Source of the DNA: Pseudomonadota bacterium
Lineage (GTDB): Bacteria; Pseudomonadota; Alphaproteobacteria; Sphingomonadales; SMXR01
NCBI GenBank assembly: GCA_022574255.1
Contig: JACZSK010000001.1
Coordinates: forward strand, 20,117 to 84,116
Reading direction: 5' to 3'
Length of the DNA: 64,000 nucleotides
Each line of letters begins with the position of its first letter. The first letter of the stretch is position 1. The translations under genes and the position numbers were made by a program. Positions 3,023 to 9,774 of this stretch are shown here, in pieces. The notes beneath the pieces are model-generated. The model saw only the letters and a program-made list of their open reading frames with translations. It did not search any database and was not told the DNA's origin.

Positions 3023-3322
3023 ATGAGCCTCGAAGACGTCACGAAATTTATGAAAGAGCGCGTCGGAGACGAAGCTGCGGTATCGGCGGTGATCAAGTTC
3101 GATTTCGGAGACGATGGCACGATCCGGATTGACGGCACCGCCTCACCCGCTGTTGTTGACAACGGTGATGGTGACGCCGATTGCACGATCGCTATTTCGT
3201 TCGAGGATTTTCAGGAGATTCTTGACGGCAATCTGAACCCTCAGATGGCCTTCATGACCGGCAAACTGAAAGTCGAAGGCGACATGGGCATTGCCATGCA
3301 GCTTTCACAGATATTGGGCTAA
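3023..3322 (+). CDS. SCP2 sterol-carrier domain protein
   Basis: Track ORF is 2936..3322. The internal ATG 3023 is preceded by caggagaag. MSLEDV...DFQEILDGNLNPQMAFMTGKLKVEGDMGIAMQL is the SCP2 signature. Confidence 0.8.
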   Translation: MSLEDVTKFMKERVGDEAAVSAVIKFDFGDDGTIRIDGTASPAVVDNGDGDADCTIAISFEDFQEILDGNLNPQMAFMTGKLKVEGDMGIAMQLSQILG

Positions 3323-3370
3323 CGGCGCCGTACCAACCGCCGCATGAAGTCCAAATGAAAGGGATCGCCG

Positions 3371-4567
3371 GTGGAACTCAATTTCAATGAGAATGAGCGA
3401 TTGTTCCGCGGGGAGGTTCGGGACTTTCTCGATGAGAGCCTGCCCGACGAAATTCGCAACAAGGTCCTTTCCGGTCGCAATCTGGACCGCGAGGACATGG
3501 TTCGCTGGCAGAAAATTCTCCACAAGCAGGGATGGATAGCTCCCACCTGGCCAAAAAAATATGGCGGGTGCGAATGGGCGCCCTCGCAACAATATATATT
3601 TGGTCTGGAATGCGGGTTGGCAGGCGCCCCACGACCGGTTCCCTTTGGCCTGAACATGGTCGGCCCGGTCATTTATACGTTCGGCAGCGAGGAGCAAAAA
3701 CAGCGCCATTTGCCGCCAATCCTGTCCAGTGATATCTGGTGGTGTCAGGGATATTCAGAACCCGAGGCGGGGTCCGATCTGGCCAGCCTGAAGACCTCCG
3801 CGGTAAGGGATGGTGACGATTATGTCATCAACGGCACCAAGATATGGACCACCATGGCACATTGGGCCGACTGGATGTTCTGCCTTGTTCGCACGTCAAA
3901 AGAAGAGCGGCGGCAGGAGGGGATTTCCTTCATTCTGATGGATATGAAGTCGCCGGGGATAACCGTCGATCCGATTATTACCATCGACGGCGGGCACCAT
4001 GTGAACCAGGTCTTTTTTGAGAACGTCCGGGTCCCGGCAGAGAACCTGATCGGGGAGGAGGGCAAGGGCTGGAGCTATGCAAAATTCCTGCTCGCCAACG
4101 AGCGCCAGGTCATTGCGGATATCGGGCAGAAAAAGCGAATGGTTGCCAAACTGAAAGCCTTGGCCCGGCAAACAGATTCGTTTGGCGGCAAGCTCGCGGA
4201 CGATCCTGATTTCTCGAGGCGGCTGGCGGAACTGGAAATCGAGGTGATGGCGCTGGAATATACCGAACTCCGGTATCTGGATATCCAGTCTGCGGGGAAA
4301 GAAAAAGGGTTTGAGCCCTCGATATTGAAAATTCGCGGCACCGAGTTGCAGCAGGCCTTGTCGGAACTTATGATCGAGGCGATGGGCGTTTTCGCCCTGC
4401 CCTATGCACCTGAGCTTTTGAAGGCCGGCCAGAACGAACCGGCAATCGGGCCGGAAGAGGCAGCCCCCGCAGTGCAAAACTATCTTTACGGCCGCGCCGC
4501 AACGATCTATGGCGGATCGAACGAAATTCAGCGGAACATTTTGGCTAAAATGCTTCTTGTATCCTGA
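3371..4567 (+). CDS. acyl-CoA dehydrogenase
   Basis: 398 aa, GTG start. Contains WCQGYSEPEAGSDLASLKT and C-terminal YGGSNEIQRNILA, typical ACAD motifs. Confidence 0.9.
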   Translation: MELNFNENERLFRGEVRDFLDESLPDEIRNKVLSGRNLDREDMVRWQKILHKQGWIAPTWPKKYGGCEWAPSQQYIFGLECGLAGAPRPVPFGLNMVGPVIYTFGSEEQKQRHLPPILSSDIWWCQGYSEPEAGSDLASLKTSAVRDGDDYVINGTKIWTTMAHWADWMFCLVRTSKEERRQEGISFILMDMKSPGITVDPIITIDGGHHVNQVFFENVRVPAENLIGEEGKGWSYAKFLLANERQVIADIGQKKRMVAKLKALARQTDSFGGKLADDPDFSRRLAELEIEVMALEYTELRYLDIQSAGKEKGFEPSILKIRGTELQQALSELMIEAMGVFALPYAPELLKAGQNEPAIGPEEAAPAVQNYLYGRAATIYGGSNEIQRNILAKMLLVS

Positions 4568-5142: not shown

Positions 5143-5284
5143 GATATTCGCGGCGAAATCGCCGGCCCCCGTTCCAACGCGCTTCTTTACTGGATCGCTG
5201 GCCGCTCCTTGTGCTATCGATTGGCCGCATTTCGCGAGGGGCAGGATTTTGCCCTTACCAGAAATTTTCGAACGGAAGCAGATA

Positions 5285-6019
5285 ATGGATCGCACAACGC
5301 TGGCACTATTGACTCACGAGTTGAGAAATCAGTGCATTTATACAGAAGCCGCATTCCGCGTGTTTAACCAGTCGCTTGAGCAAAAGGCTGTGTCGGGGGC
5401 ATTCTTCGCAGCCCAATCCATACTGCTTTCCGCCAGCCAGATCGGCTGCATGTTATGGCCGCCGCGCGCGCGCTCACGAAAACGCGGCGAGGCCTTCCGC
5501 AAGGTCCTGCAACTGCCGGAAAAGCACCCGTTAAACGACAAGCGGCTGCTGGCGATCTGGGAACATTCCGATGAAAAATTTGACGATTGGGTGGGGCGCA
5601 CCAAGGGGCAAAGGATTGTCTTTGACCATGTGGGTCCGTTGTCTGATTTCGCTGACAGCAGCGTCACCGAGGAAAGCGTCTACCGGCTTTATGATCCGGT
5701 CGACATGCTGTTGTATTTTCGCGGTGACGGATTCAAATTGCAGGCAATAGCGAACGCGATTTCAGACATCTATTCGCGCGCCAATTCTCTGCATCGCCAG
5801 TTTTTCCCCGATCAGCAGCCCCGAGACCAGCAGACTGATGACGCCAGGCAGGCCAGTGGCGCAAAAAAAGTCTCCGTCGGCACCAGCAAGGACAAAGCAA
5901 AAAAGAAACCGCCAGCGAAGAAGAAGGGTAAATCCCCGGCAGCAAAATCTTCTCCCAAGAAATCTCCCCCTAAAAAATCAACGGCCAAAAAGAGCGTTAA
6001 AAGCAAGAAGGCTAAGTGA
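5285..6019 (+). CDS. hypothetical protein with an alpha-helical N-domain (weak HEPN-like R-x4-6-H motifs) and a lysine-rich histone-H1-like C-terminal tail
   Basis: Track ORF 5249 (TTG). ATG 5285 (MDRTTLALL) is preferred, with ggaag upstream. The last ~55 aa are KKVSVGTSKDKAKKKPPAKKKGKSPAAKSSPKKSPPKKSTAKKSVKSKKAK. Motifs KRLLAIWEH and QRIVFDH are present. Confidence 0.6.
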   Translation: MDRTTLALLTHELRNQCIYTEAAFRVFNQSLEQKAVSGAFFAAQSILLSASQIGCMLWPPRARSRKRGEAFRKVLQLPEKHPLNDKRLLAIWEHSDEKFDDWVGRTKGQRIVFDHVGPLSDFADSSVTEESVYRLYDPVDMLLYFRGDGFKLQAIANAISDIYSRANSLHRQFFPDQQPRDQQTDDARQASGAKKVSVGTSKDKAKKKPPAKKKGKSPAAKSSPKKSPPKKSTAKKSVKSKKAK

Positions 6020-6050
6020 CCGCGCCAATGCGTCGAAATACCGGCGCGCC

Positions 6051-6346
6051 AGGGTCAGGACCCATTAATCCGATCCATTATGCGCCGCTCGTTTTCGGCT
6101 GGGACAGGAGGAGCGACGCAGGAAACCTCCATGGTTTTCAAGTCGTTCCGACGCCTGTCCAGCCGAAAAGGAACATCGCCCTTTCGTTGTTTGGCCGGAA
6201 AGAACCGGCCGGGGAGGGTTTGTCAAGGAAGACCGACTGCCGCGGATACAGCCCTTGAAAGGGTGTGGCCCTGTCCGCGGCCTGTATTCTTGCATTCGGT
6301 CTTCCCTGGCAAACAGAATTGAACCGGATTAATGGGTCCTGACCCT
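6051..6346. repeat. structured ~296-bp element A closed by a perfect 22-bp inverted repeat (MITE-like or structured ncRNA)
   Basis: agggtcaggacccattaatccg (6051-6072) is the exact reverse complement of cggattaatgggtcctgaccct (6325-6346). Internal helices: 6096-6108/6154-6165, 6193-6198/6205-6210, 6227-6236/6296-6305, 6239-6246/6274-6281. The termini resemble those of element B. Confidence 0.6.
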
Positions 6347-6356
6347 AGGGCATGGA

Positions 6357-6623
6357 TTACCGGGACTTGAAGGCCAGAATATACGCGTCGACCAAATCGT
6401 TTTGGGTGCAGACCCTTTCCAATTGAGCGGCAAGCGCCTCTATTTCCGCCTCGATTGCGTCGCCCGGAACATCAGCGCTGTCCAGGTTTACGGTCAGTGA
6501 CTTCTCCAGCAAAATTCCTCCGCAGGAGGCACGCAGTTTTATAATTCTCCTGTCGGCGGACAGGCCTTCATCCACAAGGTCTATGGTCACATTTCCAATT
6601 TGCATCACGGTCATTCCTTTCAT
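6357..6623 (-). CDS. hypothetical protein at the distal end of the GTA-like remnant
   Basis: 88-aa ORF, 13 nt downstream of the chimeric tail ORF on the same strand. No recognisable motif. Confidence 0.4.
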   Translation of the reverse strand: MKGMTVMQIGNVTIDLVDEGLSADRRIIKLRASCGGILLEKSLTVNLDSADVPGDAIEAEIEALAAQLERVCTQNDLVDAYILAFKSR

Positions 6624-6635
6624 TAAATTCTGGTT

Positions 6636-8159
6636 TTATGGAAGCAAGCCTCCGCCGCCACCACCGCCGCTGCCCCCGCCGCCATTGGCCGGGGTGGTGA
6701 TTTCGCCGACATAAATCCTGTTCACATCGTCCGCTACATTGGTCTTGAGCGTGGTTGCAACATAGGTCACCGCCCCACCCTTCAGGCCGGGGTCATCGCT
6801 ATAGACGTAATATTTGGTTACGAATGAAAGACCGGTTATGGCGCCGGAATTGTATACGACACTGGCATGGCCATAGTGCCTGGTATGGGATGCGATGGTG
6901 ATCTTGGCGCTAGCCCCGTTGTCGGTTGCAGTCAGTGGGTTGCTGCTCACCACCGTCAGGGCGCCCGCAACATTGACCGGCGGCAGCGCCGTCTGGTTTG
7001 TGCATCGCTCGACCCGCACGACTGTCGCCATCGCCGGGATCACCTGCTCGTCCACTGTCTCGTCCCAGGCATAGATCGCGTCAGCTTCCTCGATCAACGT
7101 CATGGGAAAGACGATGCCCGCATTCCCGTTTTCGTCACTGGCGACTTGCATCCGCCAATCCGCGACCCGCATCTTCTGATCTGTAAGTCCCAGTGGCGTA
7201 TAGGAAAAGGTGATGCTGTCCATTGCCTGGTCCTGCAGGGCAATGGGTCCGAAGCTTCCTGAGACCATCTTGTCCAGGCGCGAACGCTCCAGCGCGATTT
7301 TAGCCAGCCGCTGCGCCATCACACCCGAAGTCGTGAAGGGCAGATTGACATCCATCCACAACTCGTCGCCGCCATCTTCCGTGACATAGCCCGAATTTAT
7401 TCGCGGGATAATGTCGCGCGGCTGATACTCGGCGCTTACATCTGCATAAACGCCCCGAACCGCATTGGCCTTCTCGGAGCGTGATTTCTTGGAGCGATAT
7501 TCGATGCCGCTGAGCATGTGGGTTTCATCGCGGGACTTGACCGCGGCCCGCGACACTGCCGCGTAGATTCGCCATCTCCCCCCTTGGAAAACAACCACAC
7601 CACCCATGCTGGACGCCAGGGCTTCGAGGTTTTCGGTGTGAGAGCGCCGAGGATCAATGAACCCGTTGCAGGTATATCTTTTTTCCGAACCGCCTCCATT
7701 CAGATCAACGCTTTCATCGCAGAAATTCGCCTCGGCGATTATATTCGCCCAATCGATCCGGGCGCTGTCCACCCCGACGCCGGCAATGATCTGACCGTCA
7801 TAAGACGTGGTCAGAGAATTCGCGACCCTGATGCCGACCAGGTAATCAGCAATACACAGGGCGGGATTGTCGGACCATTCCCAGGTGCTGTGATCGGCCA
7901 GACGGTGATTGCTCGACCCGCCATCTGACCCGCCGTTGGTGCCGTCCTTTCGCGGGTCGTACAGCTTGCGGCCCTTGATGGTGCAGACCGGGTTCTTTAT
8001 GCCATCCGGTCCGCGCTCGCGGATCGAGCGTTTGAAGGCCCCGGGGGCAACCATGTCGCGGCCTTCATCGAGGTTGGAAAAAACACTGGCGTATCCCTCG
8101 AAGACGCCTTTGTCGTTCACCGACTTCACTTCGAAGCCGGCGTTGAGAATGTCGGTCAT
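6636..8159 (-). CDS. chimeric ORF: HK97/GTA prohead protease N-terminus (aa 1-55) fused in frame to the C-terminal part of a host-specificity/tail protein (RcGTA g15 / lambda J-like)
   Basis: aa 1-55 read FEGYASVFSNLDEGRDMVAPGAFKRSIRERGPDGIK, the protease family signature, lacking the following ML.QHD block. The ORF then continues NPVCTIKGRKLYDPRKDG...STWEWSDNPALCIADYL, the Phage-tail_3/g15-type signature. It ends with GGGGSGGGGGGG. Confidence 0.7.
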   Translation of the reverse strand: MTDILNAGFEVKSVNDKGVFEGYASVFSNLDEGRDMVAPGAFKRSIRERGPDGIKNPVCTIKGRKLYDPRKDGTNGGSDGGSSNHRLADHSTWEWSDNPALCIADYLVGIRVANSLTTSYDGQIIAGVGVDSARIDWANIIAEANFCDESVDLNGGGSEKRYTCNGFIDPRRSHTENLEALASSMGGVVVFQGGRWRIYAAVSRAAVKSRDETHMLSGIEYRSKKSRSEKANAVRGVYADVSAEYQPRDIIPRINSGYVTEDGGDELWMDVNLPFTTSGVMAQRLAKIALERSRLDKMVSGSFGPIALQDQAMDSITFSYTPLGLTDQKMRVADWRMQVASDENGNAGIVFPMTLIEEADAIYAWDETVDEQVIPAMATVVRVERCTNQTALPPVNVAGALTVVSSNPLTATDNGASAKITIASHTRHYGHASVVYNSGAITGLSFVTKYYVYSDDPGLKGGAVTYVATTLKTNVADDVNRIYVGEITTPANGGGGSGGGGGGGLLP

Positions 8160-8182: not shown

Positions 8183-8506
8183 TTACTGGGTAAAGAAAGG
8201 CAGTTTCAGCCTGACCGCGAGGCCGGCCATAAGCGCCAGGATCAGCGCCGTGCTGATCCAGCGGATGAGAGTGCGCCAGGCGGTGCGCCGGGCGTCACGC
8301 CAGGCCTCGAGCAGATTTCTCAGCTCACGGATATCGTTGCCTGCCGCTTCGTCCTGCAGGCCGCAAAGGGCCAACGCCCGGGCCGCCCCGGTTGAACTGG
8401 CTTCCTCGACAATGGCGCGGAGAGTCACCAGATCAGCGCCTTCATCGCGGGCCTCATCGACCAGCGCGGTGAGCAGTGCCAGATGGCGGTTTTGATCAAT
8501 GCTCAT
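8183..8506 (-). CDS. small membrane-anchored protein in the GTA g3.5 position (DUF6127-like)
   Basis: 107 aa. Its start overlaps the portal stop (ATGA at 8503-8506). C-terminal TM helix ISTALILALMAGLAV. The position between portal and protease matches RcGTA g3.5. The family name is from memory. Confidence 0.55.
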   Translation of the reverse strand: MSIDQNRHLALLTALVDEARDEGADLVTLRAIVEEASSTGAARALALCGLQDEAAGNDIRELRNLLEAWRDARRTAWRTLIRWISTALILALMAGLAVRLKLPFFTQ

Positions 8507-9774
8507 TCAGCCCGCTCCTTGGCCTGCTCCATGGCCTGCTCCGCCAGAATACCGGGCAGCGCGTCACCGCCCGCAACGGGGTCGAAGCCCAGCGCCTGGC
8601 GTTTCTCGTTGGTTGTCAGAAAGGCGGCGCCACCGACTCGTTTCCACAGGGCCTCGCGCTCAAACTGCAAGGCGGGAATCGCGTCCCGGTCAAAGTCGAG
8701 CCGCAAGTCGTCGCCAAAGCGCGCGGTAAGGAACGCATTCAAAGTGGCGACGGTTTTCTGCAGCAGCGGCAGCAGGGTCAGCCGCCACAGGGCGCGGTTG
8801 GCCTCCTGATAATTGGAATAGGTATTGTCGCCGGGGATGCCGAGCAGCATGGGCGGCACGCCGAAGGCCAGCGCGATTTCGCGGGCCGAGACATGCTTCG
8901 ACTGGATGAACTCCATGTCCGAGGGCGAAAAGGCGATCTGCTGCCACTTCAGCCCGCCCTCCAGCAAAAATGGCCGGCCGGCATTGCTGGCGCCCTGATG
9001 CTGTTCTTCAAGTTCTGCTTTGAGGCGGGTGAATTGCTCCTCGCTGAGGGTTCCGGGCCGTCCCTCGCCGGGCTCGAAGATCAGCGCACCGGAAGGCCGC
9101 GCCGCGTTATCCAGCAAAGACTTGTTCCAGCACTGTGCTGAATTATGGATGTCGATTCCAAAGGCACAGGCCTCAAGCAAGGAAAGCCCGTAAAAATCAT
9201 CCAGCGGATGAAAAGTGCGGAAATGAACAATGGGCGACTGCCCCGATTTGGCATCAACCGGAAAAGCGTGGGTGCGCCCGCCGACCTTATACTCAAACCG
9301 GATGGGCCAGCCGGAAGAACCGGGCACGATTTTCATCCTGTCGGGACGTAGCATATACAATTCGCCCGGAACGCCGCGCGCATCGTCGACAATTTCCAGA
9401 TACGCGTTGCCGGCAATTTGCAGGAAAGAGAACAAAGCCTCGATAAGCTCGTTTCCCGACTGCAGGGGATTCGGTCGGCCCAGCAAGTCGAGCAGCGGGT
9501 GGCGGGTGATCCGCTCGCCACCCCGATAAAGGACCATGGGCACGGCGGCAGCCGATTCGGCGACCATGCGCACAGAGCGGTTGGCGATGACGTTCTTCCG
9601 GTAGCCCTCGCGCACCAACTGCTCATAGCTTCGCCCGGTCCAACTGGGCGCCGCCAGACCAATCCAGGCGGTTTCCCTCCCCTGCCCAAGCAGCTTGCTG
9701 ACAGCGCTGGCCTTTTGTTCCGGACCCTCGCGGAAATTGAAAATGCGCCTGATAGTTTTGCCAATGGGATTCAT
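8503..9774 (-). CDS. phage/GTA portal protein (HK97 family)
   Basis: 423 aa. Length, position after terL and conserved blocks (FGVPPMLLGIPGDNTYSNYQEANRALW) are typical of HK97-family portals and GTA g3. Confidence 0.9.
   Translation of the reverse strand: MNPIGKTIRRIFNFREGPEQKASAVSKLLGQGRETAWIGLAAPSWTGRSYEQLVREGYRKNVIANRSVRMVAESAAAVPMVLYRGGERITRHPLLDLLGRPNPLQSGNELIEALFSFLQIAGNAYLEIVDDARGVPGELYMLRPDRMKIVPGSSGWPIRFEYKVGGRTHAFPVDAKSGQSPIVHFRTFHPLDDFYGLSLLEACAFGIDIHNSAQCWNKSLLDNAARPSGALIFEPGEGRPGTLSEEQFTRLKAELEEQHQGASNAGRPFLLEGGLKWQQIAFSPSDMEFIQSKHVSAREIALAFGVPPMLLGIPGDNTYSNYQEANRALWRLTLLPLLQKTVATLNAFLTARFGDDLRLDFDRDAIPALQFEREALWKRVGGAAFLTTNEKRQALGFDPVAGGDALPGILAEQAMEQAKERAE

Follow-up and report, generated by a model that had tools for sequence, protein, structure and literature searches.

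Location and structure of Element A

Element A lies in a window of 64 kb, the whole stretch of DNA that was analyzed, between the stop codons of two convergent ORFs, one of which ends in a lysine-rich tail (Table 1). It adjoins a phage-like (GTA-like) remnant with a protease/tail fusion (6636-8159) and a portal gene (8503-9774), and its position between the Lys-tailed ORF and the end of this remnant is as stated in an earlier note on this DNA, in which the element was said to look more like a junctioned, structured RNA than a plain MITE. The perfect closing repeat of 22 bp described there, AGGGTCAGGACCCATTAATCCG, was confirmed at 6051-6072 on the forward strand and 6325-6346 on the reverse strand. 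It is a unique pair in the window, where two exact copies are found and none is expected by chance. The repeat continues imperfectly over 6046-6077 and 6320-6351 (88%), and 21 nt of the perfect part belong to the element proper.

The four internal helices proposed earlier are all present in the sequence, repeat and fold outputs. The helix 6096-6108/6154-6165 is part of a longer hairpin (hairpin B), the 10-bp helix 6227-6236/6296-6305 and the 8-bp helix 6239-6246/6274-6281 are held in a second long hairpin (hairpin A) with the tip GCCCTTGAAAGGGTGTGGCCC (6251-6271), and the fourth is a small hairpin at the junction. In the predicted shape, a terminal stem closes hairpin B, the small hairpin (6193-6210) and hairpin A in this order. 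Folding of the 296 nt as RNA gave -168.9 kcal/mol for the forward strand (z = -12.6) and -163.5 kcal/mol for the reverse strand (z = -12.1), and folding with DNA parameters gave z = -10.3; in each of the three cases, none of 200 dinucleotide shuffles, from which the z-scores were derived, folded as well. Two further observations of the earlier note held. None of the three ORFs of 76-80 aa that overlap the element has a match in Pfam, in line with the claim that it contains no convincing ORF, and no known RNA was recognized in Rfam 15 at the gathering threshold; at E <= 10, the only Rfam matches were weak, hairpin-like and to miRNA models, with 15-18 bits against cut-offs of 64-99.

Table 1. 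Coordinates of Element A, its parts and its neighbours in the window
Feature	Position	Strand	Remarks
Upstream flanking ORF	5249-6019	+	Lys-rich C-terminal tail; stop 32 nt ahead of Element A
Left flanking dinucleotide	6050-6051		CA at the position of the TA duplication; one base off TA
Element A proper	6052-6345	- (family reference orientation)	294 bp; GGGTCAGG...CCTGACCC; GGG...CCC
Left terminal inverted repeat	6052-6072	+	GGGTCAGGACCCATTAATCCG; pairs perfectly with 6325-6345
Long hairpin (hairpin B in family orientation)	6082-6179		Inverted repeat and MFE folds; covaries in homologous relatives
Most conserved internal motif of the family	6117-6142	-	CTTGAAA, small hairpin (11-12 nt), then TTCCTGCG
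Small junction hairpin	6193-6198/6205-6210		GGCCGG-AAAGAA-CCGGCC; within the 29-nt insertion 6184-6212
Second long hairpin (hairpin A)	6218-6314		Inverted repeats and folds
Right terminal inverted repeat	6325-6345	-	Partner of 6052-6072
Right flanking TA	6346-6347		Followed by G; junction CCC-TA-G
Convergent flanking ORF, 88 aa	6357-6623	-	Stop 11 nt beyond Element A

The same insertion is found at the same place in one close strain, represented by a metagenome scaffold (L060) that is 98.6-99.5% identical to the window. The two sequences are identical over 341 nt and differ at 26 positions in the surrounding 1921 nt, none of them between 5982 and 6401. An empty site was not found, the portal protein leading only to this element-bearing strain. 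The exact flanking proteins gave no records, the neighbouring 507-aa protein has relatives of no more than 29-34% identity and no relative of the 803-aa protein of the window was found.

A MITE family of about 264 bp

When a profile HMM was made from 64 members of the family other than the window copy, it matched Element A end to end (6345-6052, profile positions 1-265) with 112.5 bits and E = 4.6e-34. In total, 66 elements of 255-315 bp from Rhodobacterales, Rhodospirillales, Hyphomicrobiales (Roseibium, Labrenzia, Brucella and Devosia) and Sphingomonadales align collinearly. By BLAST, the interior of Element A is matched only in copies of ~267 bp from a Rhodospirillales MAG and marine metagenomes, with 75-83% identity in the first third and ~74% in the last; leaving aside the near-identical strain, the best identity of any other copy is ~83%, over one third of the length. 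Once oriented, Element A is collinear with these ~267-bp copies and with the ~264-bp copies of Rhodobacterales, and the sole long gap in the alignments with its relatives is the 29-nt insertion (6184-6212), which occurs in the window copy only. A different extra hairpin sits at the same junction between the two long hairpins in L173, a family MITE that is 70-75% identical to the Rhodobacterales copies over its whole length. Judged from these alignments, Element A is a divergent member of a widespread alphaproteobacterial MITE family of ~264 bp. It has the termini, the three-part fold and the TTGAAA and TTCCTGCG loop motifs of the family and differs from it in the extra junction hairpin and in having the ~267-bp copies as its nearest relatives. 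No description of the family was found in the literature searched, in which it appears to be undescribed.

The most conserved internal motif, which reads CGCAGGAAACCTCCATGGTTTTCAAG on the forward strand of the window, consists of two loop segments on either side of a small hairpin. TTGAAA and TTCCT.C are kept in at least 80% of the 66 aligned elements, and the hairpin between TTGAAA and TTCCTGCG covaries. The consensus TTTCAAGGNTTTG differs from the IHF motif WATCAANNNNTTR by a single base, a resemblance in sequence. The tip of the other long hairpin carries TTTCAAG, the reverse complement of CTTGAAA. Kissing of the two loops was considered and rejected, as covariation gives it no support and L051 alters both loops with loss of complementarity. 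In several members (L056, L063 and L011), the left half of the element is similar, also beyond the ends, to the reverse-complemented right half (z = 5-7); in the window copy, the same comparison gives z = 1.2.

Target site, copy number and gene context

Among complete copies of the family, TA is found at the left junction in 23 of 25 and at the right junction in all 25. Over all occurrences of the terminus, the base ahead of AGGG is nearly always T, and the next base out is C or T. Outside the TA, the left side has Y and the right side R, and the two often do not match; since they are not direct repeats, the duplication is a TA of 2 bp, set in a YTAR target. A 4-bp CTAG duplication was ruled out by the many copies whose outer bases differ between the sides. 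It also follows from this junction pattern that the element proper of the window comprises 6052-6345.

The exact 22-mer turned up in 57 stretches of genomes that belong to Rhodobacterales, Rhodospirillales and Hyphomicrobiales. Within one MAG of Rhodobacterales it lies 25-50 nt from the ends of ~30 contigs (over 30 contig ends and copies in all), as is typical of a repeat in high copy number, which breaks short-read assembly. A Rhodospirillales MAG holds at least eight family copies, and family matches in the genome scans number at least in the hundreds. Complete elements with both ends measure 59, 101, 136, 186, 202, ~264, ~267, 296 and 387 bp, and deletion derivatives of 59-186 bp retain the ends alone. 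A scan of viral contigs for the terminus found nothing, and a metagenome scan for the subfamily-specific left end yielded 11 loci, none of them close to Element A.

Members of the family frequently abut genes. At 26 of 77 distinct ends, the element adjoins a long, coding-like ORF whose stop codon TAG is made of the TA and the first G of the element, and in several cases such a stop is formed at both sides; insertion into a stop codon thus rebuilds it. With neighbouring genes called by a crude GC3-based ORF picker, both neighbours could be assigned for 39 elements, of which 19 lie between convergent, 13 between tandem and 7 between divergent genes. The window copy, which is 32 and 11 nt away from the two stops, is not itself on a stop codon.

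Parent insertion sequence

A search of plasmids with the whole element returned a single match of 29 nt, which led to the parent insertion sequence (IS). The match adjoined a copy of IS66 that had inserted, with an 8-bp duplication, into another IS. Once IS66 is removed, the left end reads C-TA-GGGTCAGGACCCATTGATCATC... and leads into a transposase gene of two ORFs with a frameshift. Full-length IS of 830-860 bp are present in plasmids of Paracoccus, Cereibacter, Thioclava and Pseudosulfitobacter, with the IRL TA-GGGTCAGGACCCATTGATC and the IRR ...AATGAGTCCTGACCC-TA, and the fused transposase scores 287.7 bits against the NCBIfam model NF033580 (IS5 family; cut-off 110). In the genome collection, this transposase gene lies behind the IS IRL in 47 of the 59 occurrences with enough room, and for 28 of these 59 an IRR was recognized at a distance of 830-880 bp. 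The first 15 of 15 nt of the window terminus are identical to the IRL of the IS in Paracoccus, Cereibacter and Thioclava plasmids.

The variant end GGGTCAGGACCCATTAATT belongs to MITEs of ~260-279 bp in 51 of 74 cases and also to three full-length IS, namely L246 (Devosia alba, 836 bp), L255 (Aestuariivirga, 845 bp) and L279. The IRL of the first two, GGGTCAGGACCCATTAAT, is identical to the window terminus at 18 of 18 nt. The ends of L173 are identical to the IS IRL over 19 nt, and the MAG CAZPDV01 has an end of the MITE kind (L032) as well as one of the IS type (L135). The likeness of Element A to the IS stops ~20-30 nt from the ends, and the core of ~200 bp is unrelated. Derivation of the interior from the IS by internal deletion is not supported by the comparison, in which only the ends are common to both; to share only its ends with an IS is a common situation for a MITE.

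The IS427-group IS of Paracoccus are 832-865 bp long, and nearly all of them possess direct repeats of 2 bp as well as two overlapping, frameshifted ORFs; most of them contain an IHF-like site in the IRL (PMC3281130). Both these IS and the ~264-bp MITE family occur in Alphaproteobacteria and duplicate TA in a C/T-TA-G/A target (PMC3281130). The terminal 15-18 nt (GGGTCAGGACCCATT[A/G]AT) of IS1248, ISPze1, ISPaes1 and ISPam4 of Paracoccus are identical to those of Element A, and matching ends are found in unnamed IS427-group copies from Cereibacter, Thioclava, Pseudosulfitobacter, Devosia and Aestuariivirga. In contrast to IS of this group, which have 830-865 bp and a transposase gene, Element A has 294 bp and none; both of its ends are IRL-like and its interior is unrelated. 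From its termini, junctions and relatives, Element A is very probably a MITE without transposase, with termini of the IS427 group (IS5 family) and a divergent place in the ~264-bp family.

The 64-kb window contains neither an IS427-group transposase gene nor, by exact search and family profile, a further copy of the family; a second long inverted repeat in it (43139/44617) was examined and is not an IS. Another candidate partner, an rve-type ISNCY transposase, was rejected. Its fragment, which abuts a solo end at L025, is devoid of the C-terminal part and accompanies no other copy and is thus read as a gene struck by the insertion. No transposase was found near the solo ends in L010, L021, L022 and L049.

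Conservation of the branched fold

The fold of representatives from both other subfamilies has the same shape, at z = -14 and -15. Among eight copies from Rhodobacterales, a compensatory change is seen in 32 of the 101 consensus pairs. Across the three subfamilies this holds for 28 of 57 pairs, with 94.7% of the cells paired; shuffling of columns gave 18.4 +/- 1.7 compensatory pairs and reached 28 in none of 500 trials, and sliding the partner by 1-3 columns left at most 11 compensatory pairs and 33-50% pairing. The tip helix of hairpin A and the stem beneath it covary across subfamilies. In 65 copies, drawn from four or more orders of Alphaproteobacteria, covariation is seen at 40 of the 55 pairs that the consensus folds of both strands have in common; a pair was counted as covarying if two or more Watson-Crick types each occurred in three sequences or more. 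The branched fold, a terminal stem with two hairpins of ~100 nt, is thus a conserved trait of the family.

The consensus structure was obtained from both strands, and several comparisons looked for a preference for one of them. In the strand-shared pairs of the 65 copies, departures to G-T number 98 versus 156 to A-C; a G-U excess seen in 7-13 sequences was gone and reversed with the 65. Copies read into by a gene from one side only are oriented sense in 10 cases and antisense in 17, and no orientation bias relative to the genes reading in was found. The family contains no promoter-like sites and no promoter consensus above chance, terminator-like sites are at chance level and a U-tract terminator consensus above chance is likewise absent. 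Readings of the conserved motif as an ECF-type or sigma-70 promoter fail across the subfamilies. As the fold is kept equally on both strands, we take it as a feature for which the element itself was selected rather than as the mark of an RNA gene.

What became of the structured-RNA proposal can now be stated. The branched, covarying fold stood; an RNA gene was not supported, given the strand symmetry and the IS termini. The note had opposed to its proposal a plain MITE with many copies, target duplications and no compensatory substitutions. Many copies with TA duplications were indeed found, in the family, and compensatory substitutions are plentiful rather than absent, so that Element A is a MITE but not a plain one.

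Transcript evidence comes from another organism. In Thalassospira alkalitolerans, an 18-nt small RNA, AATTAATGGGTCCTGACC, was recovered with 336 reads and assigned to two predicted hairpin loci (PMC6413936). Its sequence is the family terminus, and the reads show transcription and cleavage of family copies in one of the Rhodospirillales. They carry no strand information, each end being the reverse complement of the other.

Comparison with other small repeats

The kind of element is known; unusual for its kind are the strongly covarying three-way-junction fold and the landing on stop codons. Correia elements (CREE/NEMIS) of Neisseria are small and non-autonomous, with terminal inverted repeats, TA duplication and an internal IHF site. 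They measure ~100-155 bp, fold into a single hairpin and are mostly located at gene ends, where they are co-transcribed and their paired ends form RNA hairpins. They are not known to have a cognate IS. Element A differs from them by its unrelated sequence, its branched fold and the identification of its cognate IS group. ERIC/IRU repeats of enterobacteria are imperfect palindromes of ~127 bp in transcribed intergenic regions, with a conserved structure that is usually discussed at the RNA level and with size variants that arise through internal insertions and deletions. They are not known to have IS-type termini or a target duplication, and their hosts belong to a different phylum-level group from that of Element A. 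MITEPye1 of Paracoccus yeei is intergenic and is flanked by direct repeats; its inverted repeats match a resident IS, its RNA is predicted to fold stably, and it derives from IS1182-family elements (PMC11578231). Its host is related to that of Element A, but the ends, the duplication and the family are all different.

Proposed mechanism and alternative explanations

An IS427-group transposase would move, or would have moved, Element A in trans by binding the two ends of 18-21 bp, with insertion at a TA in the ~40-nt spacer between two convergent genes. In the preferred reading, extrusion of hairpins or a cruciform and the TTGAAA-type, IHF-site-like loop motif would bring the ends together for synapsis. 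The fold, being the same in either orientation, may also provide a compact and stable structure at the 3' end of a transcript, and insertions at gene ends would then be harmless. The upkeep of the fold could accordingly reflect synapsis at the DNA level, harmless 3'-end RNA or the correction of palindromes, of which we favour the first two.

A host function would be compatible with the best explanation as far as the origin of the element is concerned. Roles at the RNA level, as a 3'-end stabilizer, processing site or insulator/terminator, have been proposed for Correia and ERIC elements, and the fold and loop motifs of an exapted MITE might serve its host in the same ways. The family is enriched between convergent genes (19/39) and often starts at stop codons (26/77 ends), the equal folding of both strands suits a site transcribed from both sides and the element shows no difference between the window and the close strain, against 26 differences in 1921 flanking positions. 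The small RNA AATTAATGGGTCCTGACC of T. alkalitolerans (336 reads) points the same way (PMC6413936), although these data come from another organism and contain no information on strand or function. Against exaptation speak the lack of a U-tract terminator or promoter consensus above chance, of an orientation bias and of a G-U over A-C excess, and the rarity of TA in GC-rich coding DNA together with purifying selection would equally place copies at gene ends. Exaptation is therefore considered rather unlikely. Similarly, we attach only a low probability to the specific proposal that the fold with CTTGAAA/TTCCTGCG is a module read by the host or acting as RNA (a portable 3'-end or insulator) or a cruciform for IS427-group synapsis. 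If the module reading is true, such a 3'-end or insulator would be tolerated or recruited at stop codons and between convergent genes.

The hairpins could also be upheld by mutation, since intrastrand template switching (quasi-palindrome correction) copies changes from arm to arm and would create apparent compensatory substitutions in a selfish palindromic repeat. This would agree with the strand symmetry of the covariation, with the long hairpins resembling inverted relatives of each other in L056, L063 and L011 (z = 5-7) and with the mutually reverse-complementary tips TTTCAAG and CTTGAAA. Yet the half-to-half likeness is weak in the window copy (z = 1.2), and the architecture, the ~264-bp length and the unpaired loop motifs persist in at least four orders, for which mutation alone is no explanation; we regard it as doubtful. 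The very low folding energy, the multi-branch fold and the strong covariation would suit a stand-alone structured ncRNA gene unrelated to transposition, which is nevertheless very improbable in view of the IS-identical termini, the TA duplications, the many scattered copies per genome and the deletion derivatives of 59-186 bp that keep the ends alone, as well as the lack of an Rfam match, promoter, strand asymmetry or orientation preference. Hairpin-rich, intergenic and frequent at gene 3' ends, the family also recalls REP/BIME-like or IS200/IS605-type elements that an HUH (RAYT/TnpA) enzyme mobilizes in the form of single-stranded hairpin DNA. This is extremely improbable, as a DDE-type element of the IS5 family matches the ends over 18-20 nt, no HUH gene lies beside any copy (L025 alone having the rve-type ISNCY fragment) and the TA duplication is typical of the IS427 group (PMC3281130).

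Implications

Element A is removed from the candidates for a novel RNA and is probably a transposon relic or passenger that lies between convergent genes, beside a phage-like remnant. It draws attention to a MITE family that is very widespread in Alphaproteobacteria, can be tied to a named IS group and breaks MAG assemblies. The family often rebuilds the stop codon of the gene in which it lands and keeps its three-way-junction fold by many compensatory changes. Such elements also pose an annotation problem, as they yield spurious ORFs and 'miRNA-like' small-RNA calls. Finally, they offer a clean natural system in which it can be asked why a cut- or copy-and-paste element conserves its internal structure, for transposase synapsis on short DNA or for RNA 3' ends that are harmless or useful.

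Stop codons and adjoining copies at element ends

Members of the MITE family to which Element A belongs are frequently located at the very end of genes. Of the 77 distinct element ends, 26 coincide with the TAG stop codon of a long coding-like ORF, this codon being composed of the duplicated TA and the first G of the element. Examples are L013 (4876-4878) and L040 (6218-6220 and 6482-6484), two loci from the sequences compared with the window, and the same arrangement occurs at L054, L218, L238, L265, L275 and L173. At several loci, both flanking convergent genes end in a TAG made at the element junction, so that insertion into one stop codon, or into two overlapping ones (CTAG), restores the stop.

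In the flanks of several copies, a second end (CTAGG.../...CCCTAG) or a truncated terminus lies 10-15 nt away. Such closely adjoining ends are present at L009, L014, L026, L029, L043 and L048; the 'element' at L026 measures 59 bp and consists solely of two ends. The CCC-TA-G junction of one copy re-forms a CTAG target, and this may account for nested and adjacent insertions.

Surroundings of Element A and other mobile elements

Two degenerate look-alikes of the terminal inverted repeat are found close beyond the right end of Element A, inside or adjoining the 3' part of the convergent 88-aa ORF (Table). They may be leftovers of an older insertion or chance similarities. A comparison with the near-identical metagenome scaffold L060 revealed that 15 of 26 differences are clustered in a 131-nt patch of the 88-aa ORF (6402-6532) and none fall in the preceding 420 nt, which include Element A. 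This patch resembles a tract of recombination or a segment that evolves fast.

Table. Features near Element A
Feature	Window position	Strand	Description
Terminus look-alike GGATTACCGGGACTTGA	6354-6370		76% identity to 6326-6342
Terminus look-alike TGGGTGCAGACCCT	6403-6416		86% identity to 6333-6346
507-aa ORF	6636-8159	-	First ~40 residues of prohead protease (Peptidase_S78) + Phage-tail_3 domain
256-aa ORF	5249-6019	+	Long C-terminal tail rich in Lys/Pro/Ser

The make-up of the 507-aa ORF is what would be expected of a remnant of a large internal deletion in a GTA-like or prophage structural cluster. The 256-aa ORF matched no Pfam family above threshold, an SspB-like match being weak (17.6 bits versus a cut-off of 27). 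Apart from that of Element A, the window has a single long inverted repeat (43139-43160/44617-44638; 22 nt, 91%, 1456 nt apart). It is not an IS and is located within or around two genes, one for a DUF2125 protein and one for a methyltransferase.

In L025, a truncated rve-type ISNCY-like transposase ORF (3087-3773) runs into a solo MITE end (3695-3716). It scored 211 bits against NF033594, below the cut-off, matching profile positions 115-286 of 368, and looks like a gene broken by an insertion. Mobile elements are nested in L058/L059, at about 142.3-146.8 kb on plasmid NZ_CP020444.2 of Paracoccus yeei. There, an element of the IS66 family, which has an 8-bp duplication (TGATCATC), sits 17 nt within the left end of an IS of the IS427 group, and an IS110-family gene follows the right part of the latter.

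A small RNA matching the MITE terminus

Among Thalassospira small RNAs, a 'bacterial miRNA', AATTAATGGGTCCTGACC, has been reported from two loci (PMC6413936). Judged by sequence identity, this RNA is the terminus of the ~264-bp MITE family. 'Bacterial miRNA' calls of this kind probably originate from the processing of transcribed MITE hairpins.
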